A DNA stretch of 64,000 bases, from contig JAKPDB010000011.1 of the NCBI GenBank assembly GCA_029552985.1, positions 2,833 through 66,832 of the forward strand. The letters are read 5' to 3'. The position numbers and the translations under genes were made by a program. A model generated the notes under the pieces. The model was not told where the DNA came from, did no database searches, and was given only the letters and a program-made list of their open reading frames with translations. The stretch is from a bacterium. GTDB lineage: Bacteria; Ratteibacteria; UBA8468; B48-G9; DTJG01. Of this stretch, positions 21,764-37,546 are shown in pieces. Every line of letters begins with the position of its first letter. Positions within the stretch are counted from its first letter, which is position 1.

Positions 21764-22432
21764 ATGAAAATTTCGGTTTTGATTCCGGTCTACAATGAGC
21801 AAAATACTATTACTGAAGTCCTGGAAAAAATTGTAGCACTGCCTGTGGAAAAAGAAATTATTGTTATAGATGATGGTTCTACTGATGGTACAGCAAAGAT
21901 TTTAGAAACATTGTCAGCAAAAGAAAACATTCATGTCATTACTCAAAAATTTAATAAGGGAAAAGGTTTTGCTATAAAAACAGGAATCAAGTGTGTATCT
22001 GGCGACTACGTGATTATTCAGGATGCTGATCTTGAGCTCAATCCTCTTGATATCATCAAAATGGTGGAAGAAGTGAAAAATGGGGCGCAGGTTGTCTATG
22101 GCTCCCGTTTTTTGGAAAAAAGGAAAATGCCACTGATTAATCTCCTGGCAAACAAATTTTTAACTTTTTTAACCAATCTCCTTTACCGTTCAAATATTAC
22201 TGACATGGAAACCTGTTATAAACTTTGTGCAACAGACATTCTGACTGGATTAAATCTGAAATCTGAAAGATTTGAGATTGAACCGGAAATTACATGCAAG
22301 ATATTAAAAAAAGGTTATAAGATCAAAGAGGTTTCTGTGTCATATAATCCCAGGAAAGCAGGAAAGAAAATTGGATGGAAGGATGGATTTAAGGCAATCT
22401 TTGCCATATTAAAATACAGGTTTTATGAATAG
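21764..22432 (+). CDS. GT2 glycosyltransferase, small soluble polyprenyl-phosphate-sugar-synthase-like (GT2a)
   Basis: ISVLIPVYNE, IVIDDGSTDGT, IIQDADLE (DxD), YGSR. 222 aa with no TM segment. Paralogue of 28535-29218, with the same KKIxWKDG C-terminus. Confidence 0.85.
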   Translation: MKISVLIPVYNEQNTITEVLEKIVALPVEKEIIVIDDGSTDGTAKILETLSAKENIHVITQKFNKGKGFAIKTGIKCVSGDYVIIQDADLELNPLDIIKMVEEVKNGAQVVYGSRFLEKRKMPLINLLANKFLTFLTNLLYRSNITDMETCYKLCATDILTGLNLKSERFEIEPEITCKILKKGYKIKEVSVSYNPRKAGKKIGWKDGFKAIFAILKYRFYE

Positions 22433-24134
22433 GAAAGTATTGCCCATTGGAATCATATTGTTGATAGGAGTTTTTTTTCATACAAAAGGTATAAACTGGG
22501 GGGTTCCTGATAGTGAGAGAATTTCTCTTGTTTTTGGTGACCAGAGTATTGTGGAGGATTTAATCGACCCCATGTTGCAAACGCATCAGGATATACGTGA
22601 CATGCAAATATATTATGGAGCGCCATATTCATCGGATTACAATCCTGATGAAAAAATTTCTATTGTGATTAAAGGTAAAAAGAAACTTATATCGCGAGAA
22701 CTTGTGAACTCCATGAGAAGTTATCTCGTTAGATCCTATGGCGCTGATGAACAGGCGGTTCTTGCCAGTTTAAGTAAAATGGATCCATCACATCTTGATT
22801 TCAATCCCCATTTTTTTGAATACGGAGGAATTTATTTATATCCATTAGGAGCATTGTTAAAACTTTGTTCAATGACAGGATTGATTGAATTAAAATCCAA
22901 TATGGCTTTTTATTTAAGAAATCCCGATAAAATGGGAGAACTTTACACGGTTTCTCGTATTTTTGGAGCTTTTACCTTTGTCTTTGCAACCATAATTTTT
23001 TATCTATTGTGTCTTAGGATTTCAAAAGATCAAAACATTTCGCTGATAGTGGCAATTTTATTTTCCATGACACCTGGTTTTGTTATGTGGTCACATTATC
23101 TCAAGCCATATAGCAGCGGAATGCTGTGGGTGATGTGTGCACTCTATGGGATTTTTAGATTTTTTGAAGAAAGACAATTGAAATGGATGGTTTTTTCTTC
23201 TATTTTTTCAGGGTTTGCTTTTGGCAGTGTTCTTTCTTATGGTTATGTTTTTTTAACTGTGATTCTGTCTATATTTTTCGTTACCAGCGATGCACGAAAT
23301 ATCTTTAAGAATATTGTAATTTCCGGTGTATGCTTTGTTTTTTCGTATCTTCTAACAAATCCATATGTTTTATTATCCTTTAAGGAATTTGCTAATGAAC
23401 TTTCTTATATCCAATCCTACTGGAAAAATTCTACAAGTTTTGAAAATTTGAAATATTTTTTGACAGTGTCTTTACGATATGGGCTTGGAACAGGAATATG
23501 GCTGATTGCTGCCATTTTTCTAATTTTTTCTTTGTTTTCAATGGAAAAACGATGTCTGTTGATACTGATAAGTTTGCTACCAGCTGCATTGTATTTTGGA
23601 ATGACCACTGGCAAATGGGTTCACTATTCTTTTGTTATCTACCCATATATCTTTTTGATTATTCTATGTGTTTCATTAAAAATAGGAGGAAAAGCTCTGA
23701 TAGCAATACTTTTGCCTGTTTTAATATTTACGTTTATTTTCTCTCTTGCGCATGTAATGCTTTTCTGTGATAAGAATATTCGCAGTGTTGCTGGTTTCTG
23801 GATTAACAAAAATATTCCCACAGATTCTTCAATTGGTCTTCTTGAAGCACCATCTCCCTGGAGAAGTCCACCTTTTCAATTCTTGAAATATGATATAAAA
23901 ATAGGCGAGCCAAAATCGAAATCCAGCCCCAGATACTTTATCGTAAGCGAGTATCAATGGGTGAGGGGAGGATCGCTTCAGGATATCAGGAAACTTCTTT
24001 CTGATTATGAAATTATAAAAGAATTCAAAAAAGAACCAAAATTTTTTGGATTGAAATTCAGTCAATCTGAGAAGATACCGTATGACTGGTGTCATCCAAA
24101 CCCTATGATTTTAATATGGAAAAGAAGAATTTAA
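22425..24134 (+). CDS. Large GT-C-like polytopic membrane protein (GTC-L1)
   Basis: 569 aa. TM1 then INWGVPD, loop with GADEQ acidic pair and LDFNPHFFEY, then >10 hydrophobic segments and a ~100-aa soluble tail. Paralogue of 35873-37546. Confidence 0.65.
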   Translation: MNRKVLPIGIILLIGVFFHTKGINWGVPDSERISLVFGDQSIVEDLIDPMLQTHQDIRDMQIYYGAPYSSDYNPDEKISIVIKGKKKLISRELVNSMRSYLVRSYGADEQAVLASLSKMDPSHLDFNPHFFEYGGIYLYPLGALLKLCSMTGLIELKSNMAFYLRNPDKMGELYTVSRIFGAFTFVFATIIFYLLCLRISKDQNISLIVAILFSMTPGFVMWSHYLKPYSSGMLWVMCALYGIFRFFEERQLKWMVFSSIFSGFAFGSVLSYGYVFLTVILSIFFVTSDARNIFKNIVISGVCFVFSYLLTNPYVLLSFKEFANELSYIQSYWKNSTSFENLKYFLTVSLRYGLGTGIWLIAAIFLIFSLFSMEKRCLLILISLLPAALYFGMTTGKWVHYSFVIYPYIFLIILCVSLKIGGKALIAILLPVLIFTFIFSLAHVMLFCDKNIRSVAGFWINKNIPTDSSIGLLEAPSPWRSPPFQFLKYDIKIGEPKSKSSPRYFIVSEYQWVRGGSLQDIRKLLSDYEIIKEFKKEPKFFGLKFSQSEKIPYDWCHPNPMILIWKRRI

Positions 24135-25330
24135 AAATTTTGATGTTGATTTTTTTTGTCGCTCTTGTCGCGCGCATTTGCTTCATTTTAACACTGGATA
24201 ATTCAGTGGATGTATGGGGGGACTGGTGGGATGAACTTGGTTGGAAACTTGCTTCTGGACAGGGCTACTGGGTGAATAATCCATATTTTGTCGATGGAAA
24301 ACCATTCTATTCATGGAGAGCTCCTGGTTTTCCTTTTTTTCTTGCTGCTATCTATAAGATTTTTGGACACAGTTTTCTCGCTGCAAAGATTGGTCTTGCT
24401 TTTGTAAGTTCATTGACTGCTATCTTTTTGTTTTTACTTACTGGATTTTTGGTCAATAACAAAGCAGCCATCGTGTGTGCTACAATTTATGCTGTATATC
24501 CTGTTGCGATTTTCTGGACAGGATATCTTGCGCCTGAAACACTGACAGCGTTTTTCGTTGTCGTTTTGACTTTTTTATCAGTTCTTGCAGTGAGAACAGA
24601 TAAATTATTAATATACTTTGTTTCCGGAATAACATTTGGCTGTCTTTTCCTGACCAGACCTCTTGCCATTGTTTTGTTTCCTGTGATTCTTATTTATTTT
24701 TTTATTCACAAAAAGAATTTTCTTAAGAAGGTTTTGTTTTTCTGCAGTGGTAGTTTGATTATACTTCCATGGGTTGTGCGCAATTATCTTATACATCATA
24801 CACTTGTACTTGGTTCAACCGAAGGTGGGGTAGTATTTTACATTGCTAATAATGAAAGGGTATTAGGTGAACCCAGTGGCTTTTATCATGCTGAAAACAT
24901 AGAAGAATTCAGAGGACTTTCTGAGGTTGAGATAGATAGAAAATTCTATCGTATGGGTTTTGATTTTGTAAAGAAAAATCCAGTCCTTTATTTCAATCTT
25001 GTGATAGACAGATTTATCAGATTCTGGCGATTTTTCCCGCATACAATTTCAGGACCAGGCGAGCCATACAGCAAAAAGCACGTCATGATCAGTTTTTTTA
25101 TTGAAAGCCCGTTAATTATTCTGGGCTGGATTGGGTTTTTTTTATCCTTTCGACAATGGAGAAAATTTTTTATATTGCAAGGATTTGTTGTTACATTTTC
25201 GACTTTTACAATTTTGATTCGTGCTGCCATCAGATATAGATTTCCTGTGATGCCACTGATGTTAGTTTTTTGTATTTATGCACTTTGGTTTTTTAAGGAT
25301 TTTAGGAAGAATCATGTCAGGAAATTTTGA
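24116..25330 (+). CDS. GT-C glycosyltransferase, ArnT/PMT_2-like (GTC-S1)
   Basis: TM1 then a WWDELGW acidic loop, and SWRAPGFPFFLAAIYKIFG (compare YRPPLYPLFLVLF in 27357-28538). About 11 hydrophobic segments. ATG 24116 is preferred over 24089. Confidence 0.72.
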   Translation: MEKKNLKILMLIFFVALVARICFILTLDNSVDVWGDWWDELGWKLASGQGYWVNNPYFVDGKPFYSWRAPGFPFFLAAIYKIFGHSFLAAKIGLAFVSSLTAIFLFLLTGFLVNNKAAIVCATIYAVYPVAIFWTGYLAPETLTAFFVVVLTFLSVLAVRTDKLLIYFVSGITFGCLFLTRPLAIVLFPVILIYFFIHKKNFLKKVLFFCSGSLIILPWVVRNYLIHHTLVLGSTEGGVVFYIANNERVLGEPSGFYHAENIEEFRGLSEVEIDRKFYRMGFDFVKKNPVLYFNLVIDRFIRFWRFFPHTISGPGEPYSKKHVMISFFIESPLIILGWIGFFLSFRQWRKFFILQGFVVTFSTFTILIRAAIRYRFPVMPLMLVFCIYALWFFKDFRKNHVRKF

Positions 25331-25991
25331 TTCAGTTGCTGAAGTTTATGACAGCGTGTTTAAGAGGTTTGTCCGTGATCACTATATTGAAAAACGGATT
25401 CAGTACATTAAGAAAAATTTTGGAAGTAGAAAAAAAATTCTTGATGCTGGCTGTGGAACAGGCCTTTTGACTATGCATCTTTTACAGGCAGGGTTTGATG
25501 TATATGGCATTGATATTTCTCAAGAGATGGCAAAGATTGCAGAGAATAGACTTCCGGGCAGAATCGTATGTGCCTGCATTAAGAACATTCCATTTCCTGC
25601 CGAAAGCTTTGACGGTGTGATATGTGTTGCCACATTGCACCATTTAAACCATATAGAGTTTAGGCATGCTTTGAAGGAGATGGTACGTGTTTTGAAAGTT
25701 GGAGGAAGATTGCTGATATGGGATCATAATAGAATTAACCCTTATTGGCATTGGTTAATGAAACGGGTCCCGCAGGATACAGGCCGTGAAAAAATATTTT
25801 CCGCAAAGATTATTATAAGAGAAATGAAAAGTAATGGATTAAGTTTGATCAAACACGAACGAAAAGGGTTTGTACCTGACTTTGCGCCTGCTTTGTCCAT
25901 GCCCCTTTTCACTTTTCTGGAAAAGGGTATTGAAAATATTCCATTTTTGAATTACATATGTGCACATGAAGTAATATTAGGAGAAAAATAA
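25314..25991 (+). CDS. Class I SAM-dependent methyltransferase
   Basis: ILDAGCGTGLL motif I, DGVICVATLHHL, GGRLLIWD. ATG 25314 is preceded by AGGAAGA. Confidence 0.85.
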   Translation: MSGNFDSVAEVYDSVFKRFVRDHYIEKRIQYIKKNFGSRKKILDAGCGTGLLTMHLLQAGFDVYGIDISQEMAKIAENRLPGRIVCACIKNIPFPAESFDGVICVATLHHLNHIEFRHALKEMVRVLKVGGRLLIWDHNRINPYWHWLMKRVPQDTGREKIFSAKIIIREMKSNGLSLIKHERKGFVPDFAPALSMPLFTFLEKGIENIPFLNYICAHEVILGEK

Positions 25992-26710
25992 TGTGGAGAG
26001 ACAAAAAAGTGTCAGTGATTTTTCCAACTTATAATGAAAAAGATTCTATAAGACAGGCCATAGAAGATTTTTTTGGTTCTGGTTTTGTGGACGAAATCAT
26101 CGTTGTGAACAATAATGCAATTGCAGGAACAGATGAAGAAGTAAAAAAGACACAAGCAAAGATTGTTTATGAAAAAAGGCAGGGTTATGGTTATGCGATA
26201 TGGAAAGGACTTGAACAAGCAACCGGAGACCTTTTAATCATTTCAGAACCAGATGGCACATTCTCAGGCAGGGACGTTATTAAATTGCTTGCATATTCTG
26301 ATGATTTTGATTATGTGATTGGTACCCGAACGACAAGAGAATTGATATGGCATGGCGCAAATATGGGAGCATTTTTGAAATGGGGCAACTGGGCAGTTGC
26401 AAAACTTCTGGAGTTTTTGTATAACACAACGACCCTTACAGATGTTGGTTGTACTATGAGATTGATAAAACGACATTTGTACGAAAAAGTAAAACCGTAT
26501 TTTTCAGTAGGGACTCAACATTTTGGTCCGGAATTAACAATTCTTGTTGCAAAGCGCGGAATGAAATTTATTGAAATCCCGGTGAACTATAAACCACGGA
26601 TTGGAAAATCTTCTGTAACAGGAAGTTTCAGAAAGTCCCTGGTTTTGGGATTAAAAATGATTTGGTTAATCATATCTTACAGATTCAAAAAACTTAAGGC
26701 AAAACAATGA
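25991..26710 (+). CDS. GT2 glycosyltransferase, DPM1/ArnC-like (GT2b)
   Basis: VSVIFPTYNE, GYGYAIWKG, an ISEPDG acidic motif in place of DAD, and PVNYKPRIGKSSV near the C-terminus. Confidence 0.82.
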   Translation: MWRDKKVSVIFPTYNEKDSIRQAIEDFFGSGFVDEIIVVNNNAIAGTDEEVKKTQAKIVYEKRQGYGYAIWKGLEQATGDLLIISEPDGTFSGRDVIKLLAYSDDFDYVIGTRTTRELIWHGANMGAFLKWGNWAVAKLLEFLYNTTTLTDVGCTMRLIKRHLYEKVKPYFSVGTQHFGPELTILVAKRGMKFIEIPVNYKPRIGKSSVTGSFRKSLVLGLKMIWLIISYRFKKLKAKQ

Positions 26711-27396
26711 TTCTTGCTTATCACAGAATAAATCCCTGGTATCCTGACGATGCATTAAGCGTGACACCTGAGATGTTTGAATCCCAGGTAAAGTTTCTGC
26801 TCGACAAGGGATATAAACCTGTGTCTCTTTATCAGTACATTGAAGAAAGGTCATTCACAAATAGATTTTGTGTCACATTTGATGATGGCTTTGCGGATAA
26901 TTATTTTTTTGCATATCCTGTGATAAAAAAATATAACATCAGACCTACAATATTTCTCATTGCGCATTTTATTGGTACTGAGAAAATTTATAACAAATAC
27001 AAAGACAAAGAAAAAGATAGATACCTCAAATGGAAAGAGGTTCAGGAGATGTTGAGGTCTAATGTGGACTTTGGATCGCATACTCTTTCCCATCCTGACC
27101 TTACTGTCCTTGATAGAAAACACGCCTGGGACGAGATTTTTGAGTCAAAAAAATTTATTCAAAAAAATATTGGAAGAAAAATAGACTTTTTCTGTTATCC
27201 ATATGGCAAACAGAATAAGAAAATTAGGGACATGGTTAAAAATGCAGGATATACTGGTGCAGTTGTGACAAACTGGAAAGGTGATTTTGACATATACGCG
27301 CTTCCAAGAATTGGTATTTATGGACACAATTCGTTTTTCGTATTCAGGGTGAAAATATGGCGGGCAAAATTTTTAACAAAAAAATTTTTTTCATAA
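26707..27396 (+). CDS. Polysaccharide deacetylase (CE4/NodB-homology domain)
   Basis: TFDDGFADNY (Asp-Asp metal/catalytic motif), GSHTLSHPDL (His-His), and a FCYPYG motif. Confidence 0.85.
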   Translation: MILAYHRINPWYPDDALSVTPEMFESQVKFLLDKGYKPVSLYQYIEERSFTNRFCVTFDDGFADNYFFAYPVIKKYNIRPTIFLIAHFIGTEKIYNKYKDKEKDRYLKWKEVQEMLRSNVDFGSHTLSHPDLTVLDRKHAWDEIFESKKFIQKNIGRKIDFFCYPYGKQNKKIRDMVKNAGYTGAVVTNWKGDFDIYALPRIGIYGHNSFFVFRVKIWRAKFLTKKFFS

Positions 27397-28538
27397 TTCT
27401 TTTTGGCTTCATTTTGAGGATGGTATTTGTTCTTTATCTTAAACCAGCATTTTATTTTGATGATGAACATGAATACTGGAAAATGGTAGAAAATTTTTTG
27501 CAAGGTCGTGGTCTGATAGTTGGAGAAAACCTGAAAGCATACAGACCACCGCTTTATCCTTTGTTCCTTGTTTTATTTGCTAAATTTGGAATTGGACTGA
27601 AGGGAATCAGGATTTCACAGTGTTTGATTTCCACTGCAAGCATATATCTTGTTTATTGCCTCGGGAAAAGGATTTACAACAAAAAGGTTGGAATATTGGC
27701 AGCAGGCATTTCATCTATTTATCCATTTTTTATTTTTTATTCTGGTTTTTTGCTTACAGAAACCTTATTTGTATTTCTGGTGGCATGGTGTGTTCTATCA
27801 TTTATTAAATTGACGGAAAAAAATGTATTGCCGTTTTATGGATTTGTTTCTGGTGGGGTCTGCGGACTTGCTGGGCTATGCAGACCAACAATGGAATTAT
27901 TTTTTCCTTTCTGTGTACTTTTTGTGCTGTGCACTAAGCAGGAGATGAAAAACAAGTTAAAGAAAATGGCATTTGCCATTGCTGGATTTATTCTGGTTTT
28001 AAGCATGTGGGTGATAAGGAACTATATTGTTCTTGGTAAGTTTGTACCTGGAACCACAATGGGTGGAGCAGTGTTCTGGGAAGGAAACAATCCTTATTCA
28101 CAGGGAGGTCCATGCAGGTATTTTCCTGAAGGTGTCTGGCAGATTGAGGAATCGAAAAGAGACGCAGTTTTTTACAGTTTAACATTTGATTGTATAAAAA
28201 AAGATCCGCATAGGTTTACTTTATTGCTGTGGAAAAAATTTATCAGATTCTGGAACGTTGTTCCAAATGCTTCTGAGTACAGTGGAACATTATACAATGT
28301 TATTAGCGTGTTGAGCTTTGGATTATTGATTCCATTTTTCGTTCTTGGAATGTTTGTGCCTGTACGAAATTGCAAAACAGGATTTTTAATAGGAATTATT
28401 GCGTTTTTTACTATTTTTCATATGATTTTTATTGCTTCCATACGTTATAGAATTGCCATAGAACCCTTTGTGATTTTGTTTGCCTCAGCTGGATTTTTGT
28501 GGCTCGTGGATTCTATTAAAGGAAAGATAAATATATGA
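27357..28538 (+). CDS. GT-C glycosyltransferase, ArnT/PMT_2-like (GTC-S2)
   Basis: TM1 then an FDDEHEYW acidic loop, YRPPLYPLFLVLF, and about 11 hydrophobic segments. Paralogue of 24116-25330. Confidence 0.75.
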   Translation: MAGKIFNKKIFFIILFGFILRMVFVLYLKPAFYFDDEHEYWKMVENFLQGRGLIVGENLKAYRPPLYPLFLVLFAKFGIGLKGIRISQCLISTASIYLVYCLGKRIYNKKVGILAAGISSIYPFFIFYSGFLLTETLFVFLVAWCVLSFIKLTEKNVLPFYGFVSGGVCGLAGLCRPTMELFFPFCVLFVLCTKQEMKNKLKKMAFAIAGFILVLSMWVIRNYIVLGKFVPGTTMGGAVFWEGNNPYSQGGPCRYFPEGVWQIEESKRDAVFYSLTFDCIKKDPHRFTLLLWKKFIRFWNVVPNASEYSGTLYNVISVLSFGLLIPFFVLGMFVPVRNCKTGFLIGIIAFFTIFHMIFIASIRYRIAIEPFVILFASAGFLWLVDSIKGKINI

Positions 28539-29218
28539 AGCTTTCCATTATTATTCCTGTTTATAACGAAAAGGCAACGGTTGCACAGATTATTCAAAGA
28601 GTGCTTGAGGTTCCACTGGAGAAGGAAATTATCATTGTTGATGATGGTAGTACCGATGGAACAACTGAGATTATTGAACAACTGAAGGGCAGGCATCCTG
28701 AAATAAAAATTTGTTTTATTAAAACAAACATGGGCAAAGGCTATGCAATACGGAGAGGATTGCAGGAAACAACAGGAGATGTAGTTGTGATACAGGATGC
28801 AGATCTTGAGTATGACCCCATGGATTTTCTTCATCTGATCAAACCAATCAAGGAGGGTAGAGCGGATGTTGTCTATGGGTCAAGGGTACTCGGTAAAAAC
28901 CCGAAATCCTCATTTTCATTTTATGTGGGCGGAAGATTGCTATCATTCTTATCAAATGTGCTTTATGATACTTCTATCACAGACGAACCGACCTGCTATA
29001 AAATGTTCAAAAGTAGCGTGATAAAATCCATTAAACTGAATTGCAAAAGATTTGAATTCTGTCCTGAAGTGACTGCAAAAATCGCAAAGAAGGGGATAAA
29101 AATATATGAGGTTCCTATTAAGTATGCACCACGAACAAAAAGAGAAGGTAAAAAAATTAAGTGGAAAGATGGTTTGATTGCTATATGGACATTGATAAAA
29201 TACAGAATTCTTGTTTAA
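28535..29218 (+). CDS. GT2 glycosyltransferase, small soluble (GT2a-prime)
   Basis: LSIIIPVYNE, IIVDDGSTDGT, VIQDADLEYDP, YGSR, GKKIKWKDG. Alignable along its full length with 21764-22432. Confidence 0.85.
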   Translation: MKLSIIIPVYNEKATVAQIIQRVLEVPLEKEIIIVDDGSTDGTTEIIEQLKGRHPEIKICFIKTNMGKGYAIRRGLQETTGDVVVIQDADLEYDPMDFLHLIKPIKEGRADVVYGSRVLGKNPKSSFSFYVGGRLLSFLSNVLYDTSITDEPTCYKMFKSSVIKSIKLNCKRFEFCPEVTAKIAKKGIKIYEVPIKYAPRTKREGKKIKWKDGLIAIWTLIKYRILV

Positions 29219-30021
29219 TATGTGGAGGAGGTACCCGGGTTGTCTGGAAAGAAAAAAAGTATATTGCAAGAAGATGCAAAAGATGCGATGTGATCTTTTG
29301 TCCACCTGCATCCAATTTGACAAATTTGTATGATGAAAAATATTTTTTTCAATGGTACATAAAATCGTATTTCAAAAGAAAACGATATCTTCAAAAACTA
29401 TTTTCAAATATCGAAAAAAAAATAACATTACCCCGAGGAAATTTACTTGATATAGGTTGTGGTACTGGAATATTTCTCGAACTTGCAAAAAAGAGAAACT
29501 TCAATATTACTGGACTTGATATTTCACCATTTGCTGTAGAACATTGTAAAAAAAGGGGGTTTGATGTTATTTATGGTGATATAAGGCAGGCAAAGTTTAT
29601 TGATAACTATTTTAATATTGTAACAATGTTAGATGTTATTGCACATGTAGATTATCCATTAGAATATCTCAAGAGTGTTAACAAAATTCTTAAGGACAAT
29701 GGATTGATCATCATTAAAACACCTGTTCATTCCATGTTTCTTTTTCATATTGCCAATCTATTAAAATTTACTGGAAAATCAAAAAGTTTGCTTCATATCC
29801 CTGCACAGATATTCCATTTTAATTTTAGGTCGATTAGAAATCTTTTATTCCTTGCGGGATTTGAAAGCGTTTGTGTTATCCAAACAAGAGATCTGCCTGG
29901 TTTTTTTCTTTCTCTCTCACCGGGTGCAATTTTTCTTTACCTTGTTAAAATTTTATTTCAACCATTTTTTGTTCCGGATTCAATAATTATAATAGGCAGA
30001 AAATACAAAATTGGCCAGTAA
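29185..30021 (+). CDS. SAM-dependent methyltransferase with N-terminal Cys4 zinc ribbon
   Basis: CLICGG..x15..CKRCDVIF, then LLDIGCGTGIF motif I and a VTMLDVIAHV motif. ATG 29185 is preferred over GTG 29161. Confidence 0.8.
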   Translation: MDIDKIQNSCLICGGGTRVVWKEKKYIARRCKRCDVIFCPPASNLTNLYDEKYFFQWYIKSYFKRKRYLQKLFSNIEKKITLPRGNLLDIGCGTGIFLELAKKRNFNITGLDISPFAVEHCKKRGFDVIYGDIRQAKFIDNYFNIVTMLDVIAHVDYPLEYLKSVNKILKDNGLIIIKTPVHSMFLFHIANLLKFTGKSKSLLHIPAQIFHFNFRSIRNLLFLAGFESVCVIQTRDLPGFFLSLSPGAIFLYLVKILFQPFFVPDSIIIIGRKYKIGQ

Positions 30022-30037
30022 TTGCAGTGTTTCAGTG

Positions 30038-30043
30038 TATAAT
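30038..30043 (+). promoter_or_regulatory. Possible internal -10 element (TATAAT) in the only gap of the glycosylation operon
   Basis: A perfect TATAAT lies 18 nt upstream of ATG 30061, but no convincing -35 is present at 16-18 nt spacing. Confidence 0.3.
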
Positions 30044-30060
30044 ATAGTACTGATAAGGAC

Positions 30061-31086
30061 ATGGAAAAAATACTGATAACAGGTGGAGCTGGTTTTATAG
30101 GAACAAACCTGGCGTTAGATCTTGTGCGGAATCCAGGAAACAATGTGATTATTTTTGACAACCTTTCGCGACCAGGTGTTGAAAAAAATCTGAGATTTCT
30201 TTTATCGCATGGATATAAAAATCTTGAATTTATAAAAGGTGATATTAGAAATTACAAACTTGTCAAAGAAATCACCATAGGAGCGAAATCTATATTTCAT
30301 CTTGCGGCTCAGGTTGCTGTGACATCTTCTGTTAATGATCCGATTTATGATTTCCAGGTGAATGCAACGGGAACGTTATATCTCTTAGAAGCATGCAGAC
30401 AGAATTCCAGAAATGCGATGTTTCTATTTGCCTCTACAAACAAGGTTTATGGAGACCTTTCGCATCTGAAAATTAAACAAACCAGTACGAGATATAAACT
30501 TGTGGAGAGACCAGATGGTATATCCGAAAATGAATTACTTGATTTCCATTCTCCTTATGGCTGTTCAAAAGGCGCAGCAGACCAATATGTAAGAGATTAT
30601 TTTCGTATTTACGGAATGAAAACAGTTGTATTCAGACAGTCGTGCATCTATGGTCCTTATCAGCATGGAAATGTTGATCAGGGCTGGGTTGTGCACTTTA
30701 TTTTACAGAATCTTTCTTGTAATCCAATAACAATATATGGTGATGGAAAACAGGTAAGAGATATCCTTCATGTAAAAGACCTTATTGATGCTTATAAGAA
30801 GGTCATGCGTATGCCTGAGCAATGTGCTGGTAAAATTTTTAATATCGGCGGTGGAACAAAAAATTCATTCTCATTGCTTGAGTTAATATCCATTATCGAA
30901 AAAATCACAGGTAAAAAAATGAAGTATGGTTTTGATAACTGGAGGCCAGGAGACCAGAAGGTTTTTATCAGCCAAAATAAGAAAATTAAAAGAGAAATAA
31001 ACTGGAGGCCAAGAATTTCTGGATACGAAGGCATTAAGGAATTGATTAAATGGATAACATTACATCCAGAATTTTATTCAGGATAA
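30061..31086 (+). CDS. NAD-dependent sugar epimerase, CDP-paratose 2-epimerase-like extended SDR
   Basis: ITGGAGFIGTNL Rossmann motif; STNKVYGDL, LDFHSPYGCSKGAADQY (YxxxK), DQGWV, GKQVRDILHV. These closely recall the CDP-tyvelose/paratose 2-epimerase (RfbE) family. Confidence 0.78.
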   Translation: MEKILITGGAGFIGTNLALDLVRNPGNNVIIFDNLSRPGVEKNLRFLLSHGYKNLEFIKGDIRNYKLVKEITIGAKSIFHLAAQVAVTSSVNDPIYDFQVNATGTLYLLEACRQNSRNAMFLFASTNKVYGDLSHLKIKQTSTRYKLVERPDGISENELLDFHSPYGCSKGAADQYVRDYFRIYGMKTVVFRQSCIYGPYQHGNVDQGWVVHFILQNLSCNPITIYGDGKQVRDILHVKDLIDAYKKVMRMPEQCAGKIFNIGGGTKNSFSLLELISIIEKITGKKMKYGFDNWRPGDQKVFISQNKKIKREINWRPRISGYEGIKELIKWITLHPEFYSG

Positions 31087-31090
31087 AAAC

Positions 31091-32410
31091 ATGAAACACA
31101 TTGGTGTCATAGGAGCAGGACATGTGGGACTTGTAACAGCTGCATGTTTTGCAAAAATGGGTAATTTTGTCATCTGTGCTGACAATGATATTGTAAAGAT
31201 AAAGACCCTGAGAGAAAATCAGATGCCCTTTTATGAGCCACAACTTGAAAACATAGTCAAAGATACTGTAAAAAAAGGTAGATTAGTTTTTACATCTTCT
31301 GTGAATAAATTAGTTAAAAATTCAGAAATCATTTTTATTGCTGTTGGTACTCCTTCAACTGATAGTGGTGAAGCAGACCTGTCAGCAATAGAAAATGTGA
31401 TTTTTCAAATTGCAAAGGTGCTTAATTCAAAAAAACAAAAAAGAACATACAAACTCATCGTTGAAAAAAGTACTGTTCCTGTTTTTACTGGCCAATGGGT
31501 TAAGAAAAGTCTGAGTATTTTGACGCCGACAGGGATAGAATTTGATGTTGCGGCAAACCCTGAGTTTCTTCGGGAGGGAGCTGCAGTAAATGATTTCATG
31601 AAACCAGACAGAATTGTTGTGGGAGTGGAAAGCGAAAGGGCGAAAAGAATATTGCATGAACTTTACAAGCCTTTAAAATCGCCCATAATATTTACAGATA
31701 TTAAAAGTGCTGAATTGATCAAACATGCATCAAACTCTTTTCTTGCGACAAAGATTTCCTTCATAAACGCGATATCACAGATATGTGAAAAATGCGGTGC
31801 TGATATTGATAAGGTGGCTGAAGGTATGGGTTATGACAGAAGAATCGGTATGGCTTTTCTCAAAGCAGGAATTGGTTATGGGGGTTCATGTTTTCCTAAG
31901 GACATAAAGGCATTTATTCGTCTTGCAAAAAGATTTGGTATTTCCTTTAATCTTCTTAAAGAGGTTGAAAAAATCAATAAACAACAACGGGTAATTGTGA
32001 TAGAAAAAGCATTAAATTTCCTGAATGGAAGTTTAAAAAATAAAAAAATTTGTGCTTTGGGAGCATCATTTAAACCCTTTACAGATGACCTGAGAGAAAG
32101 TCCTGCTGTTGAAGTGATGAAAATGCTTATTTCAAAAGGAGCAAAAGTTATTTGTTACGACCCTGTGGCATTAAAAAATCTTTCGCGCACTTTACCTGGT
32201 GTTTTAGTAGCTCAAAATCCCTATGATGCATTGAAAGATGCTGAATTGATGATACTTTTAACAGAATGGCCACAGTTTCAATCTCTCGATTTCAAAAAGG
32301 TGAAGCAATTGATGAAAAAACCTCGAATTATTGATGGAAGAAATTTTCTCAATCCACAGTATCTCAAAAAACTCGGATTTCAGTATACCGGAATAGGAAG
32401 AAAAATATGA
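31091..32410 (+). CDS. ugd: UDP-glucose 6-dehydrogenase
   Basis: IGVIGAGHVGLVTAACFA, NPEFLREG, catalytic GGSCFPKD; 439 aa. Confidence 0.9.
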   Translation: MKHIGVIGAGHVGLVTAACFAKMGNFVICADNDIVKIKTLRENQMPFYEPQLENIVKDTVKKGRLVFTSSVNKLVKNSEIIFIAVGTPSTDSGEADLSAIENVIFQIAKVLNSKKQKRTYKLIVEKSTVPVFTGQWVKKSLSILTPTGIEFDVAANPEFLREGAAVNDFMKPDRIVVGVESERAKRILHELYKPLKSPIIFTDIKSAELIKHASNSFLATKISFINAISQICEKCGADIDKVAEGMGYDRRIGMAFLKAGIGYGGSCFPKDIKAFIRLAKRFGISFNLLKEVEKINKQQRVIVIEKALNFLNGSLKNKKICALGASFKPFTDDLRESPAVEVMKMLISKGAKVICYDPVALKNLSRTLPGVLVAQNPYDALKDAELMILLTEWPQFQSLDFKKVKQLMKKPRIIDGRNFLNPQYLKKLGFQYTGIGRKI

Positions 32411-33348
32411 ACATAATTGTTGTTGGAGGCGCTGGGTTTCTTGGAAGTCATTTATGTGATGCATTGGTGAGAAAGGGGGACAGGGTTTTGTGTATTGACA
32501 ATTTGATTACAGGAAATAAGGAAAACGTTGTGCATTTAGTGAAAAGCAGAAATTTTATTTTTATTGAAGAGGATATCATTACCTGTGAAGTTGAAAAAAA
32601 ATTGCTATTTACGCCTGATATTGTGTTTCATCTTGCAAGCCCTGCTTCTCCAAAAGATTATGTAAAATTTCCAATCGAAACTCTTCTGGTAAATTCTATA
32701 GGAACAAAGAAATGCCTGGACCTTTGCCTGAAAACAGGAGCAAAATTCCTTTTTACCTCTACTTCAGAGGTCTATGGAGACCCTTTAACAAGTCCGCAGA
32801 AAGAAGATTACTGGGGAAATGTTAATCCAATAGGACCTCGGTCAATGTACGATGAAGCGAAAAGATTTGGTGAGGCGATTACAATGGCTTATCACAAAAA
32901 GTATGGTATCAAAACATATCTCCCGAGAATTTTTAATACATATGGTCCAAGAATGCGACTTGATGATGGTAGAGTTATTCCAAATTTTATTTCGCAGGCG
33001 ATAAAAGGAGAGCCACTTACCGTATATGGTGATGGCAAACAAACAAGAAGTTTTTGTTATGTGGATGATTTAATAAGAGGTTTACTGATGCTTGTTGAAT
33101 CAAATTATCACATGCCTGTTAACCTTGGAAACCCCGAGGAATTCACGATTCTGGAACTGGCAGAAAAAATCAGGAATATTACACGAACGAATATTCAAAT
33201 TGAATTTTTGCCACCTCTTCCCGATGACCCGCGAAAAAGAAAGCCAGATATTGAGCTTGCAAAAAATCTTCTTGGATGGGAACCAACTATCAATCTTGAT
33301 GATGGACTTACAAAAACACTTTCTTATTATACTGGTAAAACATCATGA
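32407..33348 (+). CDS. uxs: UDP-glucuronate decarboxylase (UDP-xylose synthase)
   Basis: VVGGAGFLGSHLCD, TSEVYGDP..QKEDYWGNVNPIGPRSMYDEAKR, GDGKQTRSFCYVDD. Typical UXS/ArnA-C-terminal-like SDR located immediately after ugd. Confidence 0.85.
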   Translation: MNIIVVGGAGFLGSHLCDALVRKGDRVLCIDNLITGNKENVVHLVKSRNFIFIEEDIITCEVEKKLLFTPDIVFHLASPASPKDYVKFPIETLLVNSIGTKKCLDLCLKTGAKFLFTSTSEVYGDPLTSPQKEDYWGNVNPIGPRSMYDEAKRFGEAITMAYHKKYGIKTYLPRIFNTYGPRMRLDDGRVIPNFISQAIKGEPLTVYGDGKQTRSFCYVDDLIRGLLMLVESNYHMPVNLGNPEEFTILELAEKIRNITRTNIQIEFLPPLPDDPRKRKPDIELAKNLLGWEPTINLDDGLTKTLSYYTGKTS

Positions 33349-34469
33349 AAAAAGTGCTCATTACTGGAGGGGCAGGTTTTATTGGGAGTCATCTATGCGA
33401 CGCACTCATAGAAAAAGGCTACAAGGTTACAATTTTCGACTCACTTGACAGACAGGTTCATCCTGAGGGCAAAATTCCTGATTATATCAATAAAAAAGCA
33501 AATTTTGTAAAAGGCGATGTACGAAATTATGAAAAATTCAAGGACGTTTTGATTTTCCATGACTATGTTTTCCATTTTGCCGCAGCAGTTGGCGTAGGAC
33601 AATCTCAATATAAGATTTCAAAATATGTTGACACAAATATCTGTGGTACCGCAAATCTTCTTGATATACTTGTCAATACCAAGCATCGTATTAAAAAAGT
33701 AATAGTCGCTGCATCAATGAGCAGTTATGGTGAGGGTATGGCAAGATGTGAAAAGTGTGGAATATTTAAGCCAGAATTGAGAAACATTTCTAAAAGTGGG
33801 AAAAGAGACCGTAAATTCTGGGAAATAAAATGTCCAAAATGCAGGAAGATTGCAAGACCAATTCCAACAACTGAACAATCTCCATTATCGGCTAATTCAA
33901 TTTATGCTATTTCAAAAAAGGAACAGGAAGAAATGAGTCTTCTAATCGGAAAAACTTATGGCATACCTGTTGTTTCATTACGATTTTTCAATGTTTTTGG
34001 GCCGCGTCAATCCCTTTCTAATCCTTATACAGGAGTGACTGCTATTTTTATCAGTAGGATAAAGAATAATAATCCTCCTGTGGTTTTTGAAGATGGTTTT
34101 CAGACAAGGGATTTTATATGGGTAGGAGACGTTATAAAGGCAAATATTCTTGTCCTGGAACAGGATCGTGCAAATTATGAGATTTTCAATGTTGGATCTG
34201 GAAAGCCTGTAACTATTCTTGAAATCGCAAGACTTTTGATCAGGATGGCAGGAAAATCATTGCAGCCCATTGTGACCTACAACTTCAGAAAAGGGGATGT
34301 GAGACATTGTTTTGCAGATATAAAGAAGATAAAAAGAATGCTGGGATTTAAGCCGGAAGTTTCATTAAAGAAAGGGCTAACAATGTTATTGGACTGGTCA
34401 AAACAGACAGATGCCAGTGATGGTTTTGAAAGGGCGTTGAAAGAGTTAAAGGAAAAGAAACTTGTGTGA
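33345..34469 (+). CDS. NAD-dependent epimerase/dehydratase (extended SDR) with internal Cys4 zinc-ribbon insertion
   Basis: ITGGAGFIGSHLCD, YAISKKEQE (YxxxK). About 45 aa are inserted after the catalytic Ser region: CEKCG..x25..CPKCRK. Confidence 0.8.
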   Translation: MKKVLITGGAGFIGSHLCDALIEKGYKVTIFDSLDRQVHPEGKIPDYINKKANFVKGDVRNYEKFKDVLIFHDYVFHFAAAVGVGQSQYKISKYVDTNICGTANLLDILVNTKHRIKKVIVAASMSSYGEGMARCEKCGIFKPELRNISKSGKRDRKFWEIKCPKCRKIARPIPTTEQSPLSANSIYAISKKEQEEMSLLIGKTYGIPVVSLRFFNVFGPRQSLSNPYTGVTAIFISRIKNNNPPVVFEDGFQTRDFIWVGDVIKANILVLEQDRANYEIFNVGSGKPVTILEIARLLIRMAGKSLQPIVTYNFRKGDVRHCFADIKKIKRMLGFKPEVSLKKGLTMLLDWSKQTDASDGFERALKELKEKKLV

Positions 34470-35178
34470 GGAAAACAGGATTCTGTTAAGTATCGTTATT
34501 CCGGCAAGGAACGAGCAGGAAAATCTGGAAGAAACGATTGATTCCCTTTTTTCTTTTGTCAATGGGGATACTACTGAAATTATCGTTGTAAATGACCATT
34601 CAACTGATAACACAGAGATGATTGTGAGAAAAATTGCTAAGAAAAGACCGCAGGTAAAACTGGTTCATAATGACAATGAACCCGGTTTTGCGAATGCACT
34701 GAAAACAGGGTTCGCTCATGCAAAAGGTGAATATGTAATACCTGTAATGGCTGATGGATGTGATAATGCGGCAACGATTCAATTGATGATTGAAAAGGCA
34801 AAAGAAGGTTTTGATCTTGTATGCGGATGCCGGTACATGAAAAATGGTGGAAAATATGGAGGGCCAAAATTCCAAAACTTTTTTTCTAAATTTGTTTGCC
34901 TTTCTTTATATTATCTTGCTGGCATACCGACTCGAGATGTTTCCAATGCATTTAAGCTATACAGACGAAAATCGTTGCAGCAAATATGTTTGAATGAAAA
35001 GGGATTTGCTATTTCTATGGAAGCGGCATTAAAATTTTATTTTCAAGGATATAAAATATGCGATGTACCAACTGTATGGTATGGAAGAAAGAAGGGAAGA
35101 TCGAAATTTAAGATTTTAAAAACTTTTCCCTATATTAAACTTTACTTATGTGCGATAACGAATTCATGGAAACCTTAG
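34462..35178 (+). CDS. GT2 glycosyltransferase, DPM1-like (GT2c)
   Basis: LSIVIPARNE, IVVNDHSTDNT, acidic motif VMADGCD, CGCRY. TTG start overlaps the preceding stop. Confidence 0.8.
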   Translation: MCEENRILLSIVIPARNEQENLEETIDSLFSFVNGDTTEIIVVNDHSTDNTEMIVRKIAKKRPQVKLVHNDNEPGFANALKTGFAHAKGEYVIPVMADGCDNAATIQLMIEKAKEGFDLVCGCRYMKNGGKYGGPKFQNFFSKFVCLSLYYLAGIPTRDVSNAFKLYRRKSLQQICLNEKGFAISMEAALKFYFQGYKICDVPTVWYGRKKGRSKFKILKTFPYIKLYLCAITNSWKP

Positions 35179-35876
35179 AATTGTCTGTTGTAATTCCTGC
35201 CTATAATGAAGAAAAGAGAATACAACGAACTATTTCAAAAATATGCGAGTATTTTAAAGACAAGAATGCGGCGTTCGAAGTGATCGTTGTAGATGATGGT
35301 AGCATTGATTCCACCAGGAAAATTGTCTCATCCATGATTAATGAATTTCCAAACGTAAAACTTATCGTTCACTCAAAAAATGCCGGTAAAGGAGCAGCAG
35401 TTCAAACAGGTGTTTTGGCCGCGAAAGGAAAGATGGTTCTTGTCTCTGATGCTGATCTTTCTACGCCAATTTCCGAGATAGAGAAAATGGAACATTTTAT
35501 TTTCGAAGGATACGATATTGTGATTGGGTCAAGGAAATTAAAAGATTCAGTCATCCCTATTCCTCAGCCATGGCACAGGAAATTATCAGGATGGATTTTT
35601 CAATTTTTGGTACATCAAATTTTGAGATTGTCAATTTCTGATACACAGTGTGGATTTAAACTTTTCAAACTGGAAGTGGCCAAAAAAATTTTTTCAAATC
35701 TCAAACATAAGGGTTTTATTTTCGATGTAGAAATCTTATTCAGGGCAACACAGTTGAATTACTGTATAAAAGAAATTGGGGTCATTTGGATGAATTCGCC
35801 CTATAGTACTGTTAGAATTTTTAGAGATTCTATTCGCATGTTTATCGATTTGATTAAAATCAGGTTTGGAAAATGA
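35166..35876 (+). CDS. GT2 glycosyltransferase, ALG5/dolichyl-phosphate-glucose-synthase-like (GT2d)
   Basis: LSVVIPAYNEEKRI, VIVVDDGSIDST, NAGKGAAV, LVSDADLSTP, DTQCGFKLF, FDVEILF. ATG 35166 is preferred over 35148. Confidence 0.82.
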   Translation: METLELSVVIPAYNEEKRIQRTISKICEYFKDKNAAFEVIVVDDGSIDSTRKIVSSMINEFPNVKLIVHSKNAGKGAAVQTGVLAAKGKMVLVSDADLSTPISEIEKMEHFIFEGYDIVIGSRKLKDSVIPIPQPWHRKLSGWIFQFLVHQILRLSISDTQCGFKLFKLEVAKKIFSNLKHKGFIFDVEILFRATQLNYCIKEIGVIWMNSPYSTVRIFRDSIRMFIDLIKIRFGK

Positions 35877-37542
35877 AACACTGGTATGTGCTATCGCTGA
35901 TTTTGCTGTATATTGGATGCTGTACTTTGTATTTGCTCGGTATCACATGGGGTCTTCCTTCTTCATATATTGAGAATTATTATCATGGAAACATAAGCGT
36001 TTCACAACAGTATGTAAAACAAAGCTGGCAGATTTCAAAGGAAAAATCAGAAGAAAAATTACCACGTTCGGTTTTCAATTCCATCAGATCGTTTCATCCT
36101 GATGAACAAAATATTCTTAAAAGTATCAGCGCAATGTCTCCAGAGAAACTGGATTTCAATCCTCACTTTTTTGAGTATCCGTCCTGTCAGATATATCTTG
36201 TCGCCATTACTCTTGAAATATTTTCAATAATGAAATTTGTAAATTTAACCACTGATATTTCTTATTATTTCAATCACCGTGAAGAGATGGGAAAGATTTA
36301 TCTTGCGGGAAGATTATTGACAGTTACAATGGCAGTATGTGGTCTTATTTTTTTTACAATGGTGGCAGTTTTCCTGTATGGTAAATGGGGAGGGCTGTTT
36401 GCCACAGCGTGTCTGGGGTTATCTCCATTATATGTTATCAACAGCCACTATATGACAGTGGATATTCCTATGGTGTTCTGGATCATTGTATCACTTTTCT
36501 TTATAGTGAAATTTATCAGGACAAAAAAATTTTTATTCCTTTGCCTGTCTTCTTTTTTTATCGGTGTTGCATCTGGTACAAAGTATCCAGCTGTGACAAT
36601 GATTTTTGCTCTTCCGTTTGTATATTTTGCTGATAGGCGGAATTTTAATTTCCGCTTTTTTAAAGACACGATGATTTTGTTTTTCCTTCTTCTCGTGGGA
36701 TTTTTAATTACCACGCCTTATGCATTAATATCGTTTCAAGAATTTAAACGTGATGTAATGTACCAAACATTTTCACGGGGTGTCGGTGCTTCAGATTTTT
36801 TGAGTTATTTTCGATTTCCGGGAGAATGTTTTGGTGCATTGTGGGTTGGGGTATGGCTGATTTTGATTCTTTATATTGCTGGAATTTGCGTACAGGCAGT
36901 ACGAAGAAATTTTTCGGACAGAATTGTTCTTACTTGTTGCATGTTAATGTTTTTGCCGTTATTGAGTGCAGGCGGTTTTAAATATGCCCGCTACTATCTG
37001 ATTGTTTTGCCATTTTTAAGCTTAAGCGCTGGTTGTTTTTTTGACTGGATTTTACAAATTCGTAATTTACGGAGCAGACTATTGGGCGCTATGATGTGCA
37101 TGATTTTTCTTGTAGGTAGTTTTTCCAAATCCCTTGCCTATTCCGTCTTAATGAGTAAAAAAGATGTTCGCCTGATAGCTGCAGAATATATTGAAAGAGA
37201 AATTAAGCCAGCAAGCACAATTATTTACACAAAAGATCCGTGGATTTTTGAGGTTCCACCTGTTAGTCCATTAAAATATTCAGTATCAATTATTCCTGAA
37301 CACAGTTTACAGAATGCGAAACCAGGGAGTTTTTTAATTCTTGGCGAACTTCAGTATTTTCTGACTTCTGGTGACAGAATGCAAGAAATGAACAAAAAGA
37401 TCTGGCAGATGAAGAAAAAAGGATTTATTGTCAAAAAAATTTTCGCTAACCCTGCCAGGATTGGTCCATTTGAGTTTGATTTCAGGTGGACACTTCACGA
37501 TATGCTCTATGCTCATCCGTTAATATTTTTGTTTTATAAGCC

Positions 37543-37546
<4 letters not shown>
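35873..37546 (+). CDS. Large GT-C-like polytopic membrane protein (GTC-L2)
   Basis: 557 aa. TM1 then ITWGLPS, an RSFHPDEQ acidic loop, LDFNPHFFEY (identical decapeptide to GTC-L1), TTPYALISFQEF (compare TNPYVLLSFKEF), and a soluble C-terminal ~110 aa. Confidence 0.65.

Follow-up and report, generated by a model that had tools for sequence, protein, structure and literature searches.

Pairs made up of a polyprenyl-phosphate-sugar (Pren-P-sugar) synthase and a membrane glycosyltransferase of the GT-C type are known, singly or as two pairs, to decorate O antigens, teichoic acids, rhamnans or lipid A with side branches. In these three-component systems a glycosyltransferase of family 2 (GT2) makes the Pren-P-monosaccharide in the cytoplasm and the GT-C enzyme transfers the sugar outside; several pairs may coexist, and the flippase may be encoded elsewhere (PMC9574508, PMC11754754, PMC11127046). 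Their general logic and variants have been set out by Kelly et al. (PMC11127046). Here we examine a cluster of 16 genes, at positions 21764-37546 of a 64-kb stretch of contig JAKPDB010000011.1 from a Ratteibacteria genome (the whole stretch is called the window below), which encodes five small GT2 proteins and four predicted GT-C enzymes. We favor, with moderate confidence, the view that the cluster is a lineage-specific operon of concatenated modules of the three-component or ArnC-ArnD-ArnT type, whose products would add sugars outside the cytoplasm to an envelope glycan made elsewhere. Ratteibacteria is an uncultured candidate phylum of the PVC supergroup whose genomes are often filed under Omnitrophica, and in our searches of the literature we came across no work on glycosylation in Ratteibacteria, nor any on GT-Cs in Omnitrophota.

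All 16 open reading frames (ORFs) of the cluster, g1-g16, lie on the + strand. In the list below, aa stands for amino acids, TM for transmembrane, SAM for S-adenosylmethionine, SDR for short-chain dehydrogenase/reductase and DPMS for dolichyl-phosphate mannose synthase.

21764-22432, + strand: g1, GT2 of 222 aa with a DAD motif (PF00535, E 4e-34; best NCBIfam matches AglJ and ArnC, below cut-off)
22425-24134, + strand: g2, predicted long GT-C of 569 aa with a C-terminal periplasmic domain (PMT_2, PF13231, E 2.7e-7, and PMT; AlphaFold2 model)
24116-25330, + strand: g3, predicted short GT-C of 404 aa (PMT_2, E 3e-15; weak ArnT match, PRK13279, E 2e-8)
25278-25991, + strand: g4, cytoplasmic UbiE-type SAM methyltransferase (Pfam and NCBIfam)
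25991-26710, + strand: g5, GT2 of 239 aa with an EPD motif (PF00535; top PDB match ArnC, 9hwj, over residues 5-208)
26707-27396, + strand: g6, CE4 deacetylase (Polysacc_deac_1, PF01522, E 1e-27; PDB 6dq3, E 3e-16)
27357-28538, + strand: g7, predicted short GT-C of 393 aa with FDDE after the first TM segment (PMT_2, E 3e-16; AlphaFold2 model)
28535-29218, + strand: g8, GT2 of 227 aa with a DAD motif (PDB Pyrococcus DPMS, 5mlz, E 2e-21 over residues 1-211, then ArnC and GtrB)
29161-30021, + strand: g9, SAM methyltransferase (Pfam, hydropathy scan)
30061-31086, + strand: g10, SDR nucleotide-sugar epimerase resembling CDP-tyvelose 2-epimerase (PDB 9rl0, E 1e-97; 1orr, E 3e-94)
31091-32410, + strand: g11, UDP-glucose 6-dehydrogenase (three UDPG_MGDP_dh domains)
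32407-33348, + strand: g12, UDP-glucuronate decarboxylase, or UDP-xylose synthase (human UXS1, 4gll/2b69, E 9e-108, 363 bits, full length)
33345-34469, + strand: g13, SDR resembling GalE and UDP-GlcA 4-epimerase (Pfam, PDB comparison)
34462-35178, + strand: g14, GT2 of 238 aa with an ADG motif (PDB DPMS, 5mlz, E 1e-24 over residues 8-226, then GtrB and ArnC)
35166-35876, + strand: g15, GT2 of 236 aa with a DAD motif (PF00535, E 2e-33; best NCBIfam matches PgfS, ArnC and PpgS, below cut-off)
35873-37546, + strand: g16, predicted long GT-C of 557 aa with HPDEQ (PMT_2, E 1e-8, and PMT)

Every ORF of the operon has an assignment and none is left over. According to Pfam, the 16 proteins comprise five GT2s, four PMT_2 proteins, two class-I SAM methyltransferases, one CE4 deacetylase, three SDR epimerase/dehydratases and one UDP-glucose dehydrogenase. 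An earlier interpretation of this DNA made from the letters and their ORFs (the sequence-only reading) had listed two methyltransferases, a CE4 deacetylase and a nucleotide-sugar block, with which Pfam agrees, and a check of the ORFs confirmed the 16 co-directional frames and the 4-nt overlap of g16 with queA. Elsewhere neighboring frames overlap by 1-53 nt or are separated by 4 nt or by 39 nt (30022-30060), in line with the description of stops and starts that overlap or nearly abut, the 39-nt gap being the sole real one. Alternative starts exist for g3 (24089 GTG or 24116 ATG), g4 (25278 or 25314), g9 (29161 or 29185) and g15 (35148 or 35166).

The five GT2s, which match PF00535 with E values from 4e-18 to 4e-37, are predicted to be polyprenyl-phosphate sugar synthases of the DPM1/ArnC/GtrB/PpgS class. 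A search of all sequences in the PDB with three of them, g5, g8 and g14, gave DPMS, ArnC and GtrB as the top matches. These alignments cover the whole catalytic domain, the acceptor-loop region included (g8 residues 1-211 on DPMS residues 23-234), whereas Leloir GT2s align only across the N-terminal nucleotide-binding half. The best NCBIfam matches of all five are AglJ, ArnC, PgfS, PpgS or a Dol-P-hexose transferase, all far below the equivalog cut-offs; the ArnC model, for example, scores 34-75 bits against a cut-off of 529. A hydropathy scan detected no TM segment in any of the five, so the scan and the PDB and NCBIfam relatives together agree with the sequence-only reading, which had described five small soluble GT2s resembling Pren-P-sugar synthases. 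All five end in an amphipathic, basic helix, which we infer to be a monotopic membrane anchor. g1 is a paralogue of g8 (47% identity), and g14 carries near its C-terminus the sequence GRKKGRSK, which resembles R-x-x-G-x-S-K.

The most conserved gene of the cluster is g5, at 77-89% identity in relatives and 67-70% in Hydrogenedentota and Nitrospirota. The family of small EPD-motif GT2s to which it belongs comprises at least 7761 clusters, and no NCBIfam model names it. We looked at the context of this family in four further loci (L087, L088, L089, L090; loci are numbered with L throughout). In three unrelated ones (L087, L089, L090) the GT2 comes directly after a PMT_2 protein of 526-537 aa, and in a Nitrospirota MAG (metagenome-assembled genome) a g5-like GT2 follows a g4-like methyltransferase.

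The four polytopic proteins g2, g3, g7 and g16 are predicted to be GT-C enzymes with a catalytic-type Asp/Glu motif in the first external loop. Each PMT_2 protein has 9-11 hydrophobic segments in a hydropathy scan; g16 and g2 are paralogues (25% identical over about 540 residues), as are g3 and g7 (31% identity). The ArnT model recognizes only g3, at 33 bits against a cut-off of 567. Since PDB sequence searches with g7, and with profiles of g7 and g2, returned nothing significant, a comparison of folds was needed. AlphaFold2 was run on g2 with an alignment of 29 homologues and on g7 with one of 42; the resulting models had pLDDT values of 91.5 (g2) and 91.7 (g7) and a pTM of 0.91 in both cases, and in Foldseek searches of the PDB both models matched GT-C structures at probability 1.0. 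For g7 the top ~30 matches were all GT-C proteins: AglB (query TM-score 0.61-0.63), STT3, PglB, ALG3, ArnT, Pmt4, ALG12, AftB and AftD. The top ~30 for g2 included ALG12, STT3, ALG9, ArnT, AftB, PglB, Pmt4 and Emb, the sole non-GT-C protein among them being a low-probability GLUT3 match at rank 26. The GT-C fold of g3 and g16 is assigned by paralogy and PMT_2, and with it the proposal of four PMT/ArnT-type GT-Cs is upheld for the whole set.

The loop-1 motif was aligned among orthologues drawn from 80 genome loci. In g2, D108-E109 is present in at least 90% of 24 orthologues, and the GDWWDE that follows the first TM segment of g3 in at least 90% of 28. Among 72 orthologues of g7, D36 is kept in at least 90% and E37 in at least 70%; HPDEQ of g16 is conserved in 7 orthologues. 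The acidic pair that had been noticed by eye in this loop thus survives proper alignment.

The 80 loci, each encoding a relative of g7, come from a scan with one genome per species, and the 16 window proteins were mapped onto them. The full order g1-g16 recurs in L007, L008, L010, L011, L013, L015, L040 and others. The arrangement is not due to chance, the same gene order being found in many MAG contigs at 45-90% protein identity. The uppP/cluster/queA boundaries are identical in L008, L013 and L015, while L010 keeps queA downstream and has different genes upstream. Four MAGs labelled Ratteibacteria or "Omnitrophota" keep the order uppP, g1-g16, queA; the conserved unit belongs to this close clade. 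In some relatives an extra long GT-C takes the place of g4, and others gain GT-Cs of 480-530 aa, so that the GT-C count reaches five in relatives such as L008, L010 and L015. When genes were counted with hidden Markov models across the loci, at least four GT-Cs together with five small GT2s were found in this clade only; in other phyla a locus holds a single GT-C with no more than one GT2, and this GT2 usually exceeds 290 aa, as do the TM-bearing GtrB/ArnC types. The 16-gene unit is real and lineage-specific. We rejected a horizontally acquired island because the GC content of the cluster (0.34-0.37) is that of its immediate flanks (about 0.35-0.37, with the window overall reaching 0.40), the neighbors are housekeeping genes and the uppP/cluster/queA boundaries are conserved; the operon is a core-genome, vertically inherited trait.

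Outside this clade smaller parts of the cluster persist. The g7-g8 pair is retained in relatives down to 40% identity, and g6-g7-g8-g9 is the most constant block, with g9 the conserved partner of g7-g8. One 624-aa protein, P0106, from a 13-kb Joint Genome Institute (JGI) contig, has a g7-like GT-C at its N-terminus (51% identical to g7) fused to a g8-like GT2 at its C-terminus. The persistence of g7 with g8, this fusion and the position of g5-family GT2s next to PMT_2 proteins in three loci argue for functional coupling of GT2s and GT-Cs.

The neighbors of the block in distant relatives bear on its acceptor. In L004 and L040 it is preceded by two Wzx-type genes, a larger GT2, a GHMP kinase, two GT4s and AsnB, and the order GT4-GT4-AsnB precedes it in L021, L030, L035 and L042. 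In L048 g7-g8 come after Wzx (Polysacc_synt/MatE), methyltransferases, GT4 and AsnB, and in L046 the pair is clustered with a UXS-like gene, a WecA-like PF00953 transferase and a Wzy_C gene 26% identical to g17, a gene of the window described below. Between them, L004, L046 and L048 thus have Wzx, a WecA-like gene and Wzy_C beside the core pair. From these Wzx, GT4, AsnB, WecA-like and Wzy_C neighbors it follows that the ancestral context of g7-g8 is an ordinary undecaprenyl-diphosphate (Und-PP)/Wzx/Wzy polysaccharide locus. The expectation that relatives would carry a conserved, self-contained unit and not scatter its genes in ordinary polysaccharide loci therefore holds for the closest clade and fails for the distant relatives.

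Two further features of these relatives were noted. An AsnB-like amidotransferase of 625-648 aa lies directly upstream of the GT-C/GT2 block in L004, L021, L030, L035, L042, L046 and L048, usually beside one or two GT4s (for L004 and L048 the assignments of AsnB and GT4 are confirmed; for the other loci they come from ORF sizes). Its recurrence suggests amidated uronic acids in the acceptor glycan of those relatives; AsnB and GT4 genes are absent from the 64-kb window. In L048, a marine Omnitrophota MAG, a B12-binding radical-SAM enzyme and three methyltransferases are encoded at 1173-2636 (+) in the Wzx/GT4/AsnB locus before g7-g8.

In the window itself one gene points in the same direction.

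17504-19294, - strand: g17, polytopic protein of 596 aa of the Wzy_C family (PF04932; O-antigen ligase/polymerase) with a C-terminal TPR region, 2.4 kb upstream of the cluster

In L007 and L013 g17 likewise lies upstream, and it is a possible partner of the system. We propose that the acceptor is made elsewhere because in relatives the block follows Wzx, GT4 and AsnB genes and adjoins WecA-like and Wzy_C genes, and because g17 lies only 2.4 kb away here.

Sugar supply and tailoring are covered by the remaining seven genes. g11 exceeds the NCBIfam cut-off for nucleotide-sugar dehydrogenases (437 bits against 190) and scores 512 bits with TuaD; the match of g12 to human UXS1 compares with about 96 bits to ArnA. 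The CE4 protein g6 has intact metal and catalytic motifs, TFDDG and HTLSHPD (HxxxH), and is predicted to be cytoplasmic because it has neither a signal peptide nor a TM segment. g9 carries an N-terminal CxxC...CxxC zinc ribbon (window about 29212-29286) and a C-terminal hydrophobic anchor. A zinc-ribbon-like CxxC...CxxC insertion of ~32 residues (135-166; C135, C138, C163 and C166; window 33747-33842) was also seen in g13, where it interrupts the SDR epimerase fold and leaves two matched stretches in Pfam. As SAM and the leaderless CE4 protein would both be cytoplasmic, deacetylation and methylation should precede export. The most plausible substrate of tailoring, by analogy, is a lipid-linked sugar. 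ArnD acts on a lipid-linked sugar, and NaxD is a precedent for deacetylation at this level (PMC11279074).

Taken together, these assignments suggest the following scheme. g11 and g12 would make UDP-GlcA and UDP-xylose, which, or other nucleotide sugars, g10 (2-epimerase type) and g13 (4-epimerase type) may diversify. Each GT2, held at the membrane by its C-terminal helix, would load one sugar onto undecaprenyl phosphate (Und-P) on the cytoplasmic face; five kinds of sugar are envisaged, likely including ones derived from UDP-GlcA or UDP-Xyl and an N-acetylhexosamine turned into hexosamine. g6 and the two methyltransferases, of which g9 would be membrane-anchored, may tailor the sugars before export, most likely in lipid-linked form as with ArnD and NaxD, and a flippase encoded elsewhere would carry the Pren-P-sugars over the membrane. 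On the periplasmic face the four GT-Cs would then attach the sugars to an envelope glycoconjugate, the backbone of which comes from elsewhere; this acceptor would most likely be an Und-PP-derived or lipopolysaccharide (LPS)-type glycan handled by a Wzy_C-family protein such as g17. Adjacency, fusion and co-conservation point to g1-g2, g8 (with g6 and g9)-g7, g15-g16 and g5 (with g4)-g3 as the likely pairings.

The search for a flippase gave negative results at three levels. The operon has no unassigned ORF; the window has no small multi-TM ORF apart from antisense artefacts (all ORFs of 70 aa or more were scanned for TM segments); and the unmatched ORFs of 19 related loci include no candidate within the clusters. 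In L019 a SatD-family gene (209 aa) and a 114-aa ORF with three TM segments and no Pfam match lie between the g5 and g6 orthologues (4772-5771, +). We considered the 114-aa ORF, the sole small multi-TM frame within any related cluster, as a flippase and treated it as an unrelated insertion, given its lack of a Pfam match and its SatD-family neighbor. Genes of the Wzx/MATE type adjoin the block in L004 and L048 only. The sequence-only reading had found no flippase, Wzy or priming transferase: flippase and primer are indeed absent across the 64 kb, whereas the statement on Wzy is qualified by the Wzy_C/TPR gene g17. The absence of a flippase is not anomalous, since in Lactococcus lactis one flippase, CflA, encoded at another locus, serves three GT2/GT-C pairs (PMC9574508). 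In Streptococcus mutans two GT2/GT-C pairs act on one polymer (PMC11754754). The statement that known bacterial examples are single pairs was thus too strong, as both species have several.

Several observations weigh against the scheme. According to the hydropathy scan the GT2s lack the C-terminal TM helices of GtrB, ArnC and archaeal DPMS, and the soluble Ppm1/PpgS-type enzymes of mycobacteria have small membrane partners (PMC3485146), none of which is present here. All family assignments of GT2s and GT-Cs fall under the curated NCBIfam equivalog cut-offs. P0106 is a single sequence, and a 1-nt error at the 4-nt gene overlap could create such a fusion. Promoter and terminator scans were indistinguishable from shuffled sequence, so that co-transcription rests solely on the ORF overlaps. 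The 64-kb window contains no flippase, priming transferase or backbone glycosyltransferase, which makes the acceptor a guess, and the self-contained unit of the closest clade fits an autonomous, stepwise assembly equally well.

Such an assembly would have the four GT-Cs work in series with their own Pren-P-sugar donors on a lipid, peptidoglycan or protein primer, with no Und-PP backbone and no Wzx/Wzy, as in lipomannan/lipoarabinomannan (LM/LAM), arabinan or lumenal ALG synthesis. We think this unlikely, although a number of facts speak for it. In the closest clade the 16 genes form a closed unit with fixed boundaries and housekeeping flanks, the operon has its own nucleotide-sugar block, the five GT-Cs of L008, L010 and L015 look like chain-building diversity, the fold matches include successive chain builders (ALG12, ALG9, ALG3, AftB, Emb), and no priming transferase occurs in 64 kb. 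The fold, however, cannot separate chain builders from enzymes that add a single sugar, as ArnT, PglB and AglB score equally well. Moreover, distant relatives embed the core beside Wzx, GT4, AsnB, WecA-like and Wzy_C genes, a Wzy_C gene (g17) is close by in the window, and no donor pathway of the decaprenyl-phosphoarabinose (DPA) type is present. The boldest form of this idea, which we regard as doubtful, is that a core envelope glycan of Ratteibacteria is built wholly outside the cytoplasm by four to five GT-Cs from five Und-P-monosaccharide donors (pentoses or uronates, some N-deacetylated and methylated on the carrier), flipping being done by an unrecognized protein or by a GT-C or its partner. 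If true, this would be a single-operon bacterial counterpart of lumenal ALG or of LM/LAM assembly. Of the proposal of ER-lumen or arabinan-style stepwise assembly made in the sequence-only reading, we keep the identities of the components and the conserved unit; its autonomy is called into question by g7-g8 in Wzx/Wzy-type loci, by g17 nearby and by the precedents in L. lactis and S. mutans.

O-glycosylation of secreted or surface proteins (S-layer, pilins, lipoproteins) by the PMT/PMT_2 proteins, in the manner of actinobacterial Ppm1/Pmt or archaeal AglD/AglS, is distinctly improbable. The PF02366 (PMT) scores of g2 (24.9 bits) and g16 (25.8 bits) are marginal and just pass the threshold of 22.7 (g3 and g7 have no match), a Pmt-like DE motif is present, Pmt4 and Pmt1-2 are among the fold matches, and AglJ is the best NCBIfam match of three GT2s. 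On the other hand, PMT_4TMC and MIR domains were not detected by Pfam in any operon protein (E up to 0.01), and Pmt structures rank under oligosaccharyltransferases, ALG proteins and ArnT in the fold searches. The operon also holds no gene for a candidate acceptor protein, and in relatives the Wzx, GT4, WecA and Wzy_C neighbors indicate a polysaccharide.

It is highly improbable that the GT2s are ordinary cytoplasmic Leloir transferases extending an Und-PP repeat unit and the PMT_2 proteins polymerases, ligases or flippase-associated factors: the breadth of the GT2 family, NCBIfam matches that all stay far below equivalog cut-offs, the missing GtrB/ArnC-type anchors and a weak NCBIfam match of g7 to the "flippase activity-associated" Agl23 model would allow it, but across the full catalytic domain their best matches among solved structures are consistently Pren-P-sugar synthases, with Leloir GT2s matching in the N-terminal half only, GT2/GT-C adjacency recurs across phyla and extends to the fusion P0106, and the GT-C models carry a conserved acidic loop of the catalytic type.

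The wider setting of the cluster is that of core genome. The window matches a 72.6-kb metagenome contig (JGI 3300009712 Ga0116165_1000091) and a MAG contig of GCA_035359415.1, and its proteins have their closest homologues in entries labelled Candidatus Ratteibacteria or Candidatus Omnitrophica. The samples in which the contig occurs come from anaerobic digesters. Upstream there is a block of ribosomal-protein genes with secY, adk, map and rpoA, then a PilT-like ATPase gene, purD, pnp, cmk, frr, pyrH, a class-I aminoacyl-tRNA synthetase gene, PSP1, the Wzy_C/TPR gene, pyrD, pyrK and uppP; downstream are queA, tgt, yajC, a LarC-like gene, valS, rplU, hflX, truB and a mutase gene of the PGM/PMM family. 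The genes that border the cluster are as follows.

20926-21702, - strand: uppP/bacA, undecaprenyl-diphosphatase, divergent neighbor (PF02673, E 5e-64)
37543-38541: queA, downstream of g16

The Pfam match supports the earlier identification of a divergent uppP next to the cluster. We gave little weight to this adjacency as a functional link: it is retained in the close clade alone, and the Pren-P-sugar cycle makes no Und-PP and mechanistically needs no UppP. Isolated among the housekeeping genes are the PilT/T2SSE-type ATPase gene (8476-9621, +), between the rpoA block and purD, and the LarC-like (Ni_insertion) gene (39972-41126, +) after yajC. Long ORFs antisense to ribosomal-protein or topA genes were seen at 1448-1969 (-), 6172-6564 (-) and 56528-57055 (+); one was checked and has no Pfam match, two have three predicted TM segments, and they are most likely spurious.

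A lineage at the level of a candidate phylum has thus expanded the GT2/GT-C principle to nine transferases, with precursor and tailoring genes, in one conserved core-genome operon. If the scheme favored here is right, a major envelope glycan of unusual chemistry is specified by this operon; methylated sugars, a free amino sugar, and pentoses or uronic acids would be its likely components. For glycoengineering the operon would supply five Und-P-sugar synthases with four matched GT-Cs as a compact set, and it would give a clean genetic setting in which to seek the still poorly defined Pren-P-sugar flippases. In addition, g5 draws attention to a GT2 family, very widespread and strongly conserved, whose members are paired with PMT_2 GT-Cs across phyla. 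As an experimental target the locus is worthwhile for the extent of its array, the apparent tailoring at the lipid level and its core-genome status in an uncultured phylum.

Of the described systems, the three-component ones (GtrA/GtrB/Gtr of Shigella and Salmonella, CsbB/GtcA/YfhO, CsdAB/CD/EF with CflA of L. lactis, SccN/M and SccP/Q of S. mutans, and Citrobacter GT136) share with the cluster the adjacent GT2 and GT-C genes. The cluster differs from them in having five GT2s and four GT-Cs in one operon with its own nucleotide-sugar, deacetylase and methyltransferase genes, in GT2s that have no TM anchor, and in that neither locus nor window has a GtrA, SMR or MATE flippase. The Arn pathway offers another likeness, in the succession of a UDP-glucose dehydrogenase, a UDP-GlcA decarboxylase, a GT2 acting on Und-P, a cytoplasmic deacylase and an ArnT-like GT-C; g5 or g8, g6 and g7 mirror ArnC, ArnD and ArnT, as a functional analogy only. 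Pfam finds no ArnB aminotransferase, formyltransferase domain or ArnE/F among the 16 proteins, and NCBIfam gives no match of g6 to the ArnD model. We therefore rejected membership of the Arn pathway, as ArnB and the formyltransferase are missing, g12 is a UXS and not ArnA, and scores are far under the cut-offs. Arn-related systems for lipid A aminosugars are FlmF2/NaxD/FlmK of Francisella and LgmABC of Bordetella; NaxD is a YdjC-type enzyme, whereas g6 belongs to CE4.

The mycobacterial and corynebacterial systems (Ppm1/D2 with PimE/Mpt; PpgS/Rv3779; Emb/Aft) resemble the cluster in that small GT2s without TM segments (Ppm1 D2, PpgS) feed GT-Cs. The NCBIfam model of PpgS has a length of 226 positions; PpgS makes Pren-P-N-acetylgalactosamine, and its sugar ends as galactosamine on arabinogalactan (PMC3485146). 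In these systems many GT-Cs act on one envelope polymer, and AftB, AftD and Emb are among the fold matches of g2 and g7; the mycobacterial genes are dispersed, whereas those of the cluster form one operon. Donors for arabinan come from PRPP via a UbiA-type enzyme and DprE1/E2, and no domains of this pathway (UbiA-type DPPRS, phosphatase, DprE1/E2) occur in the operon or the window. In Rhizobium one GT2, RgtE, loads a sugar derived from UDP-GlcA onto polyprenyl phosphate, and four ArnT-like GT-Cs, RgtA-D, galacturonosylate the LPS core and lipid A; one GT2, four GT-Cs and one type of sugar there contrast with five distinct GT2s and tailoring enzymes here. As regards a Wzx/Wzy-dependent locus, the window has no phosphoglycosyl transferase or Wzx, and only the Wzy_C/TPR protein g17. 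No new principle is demonstrated by these comparisons: the locus is an expanded, lineage-specific version of a known system.

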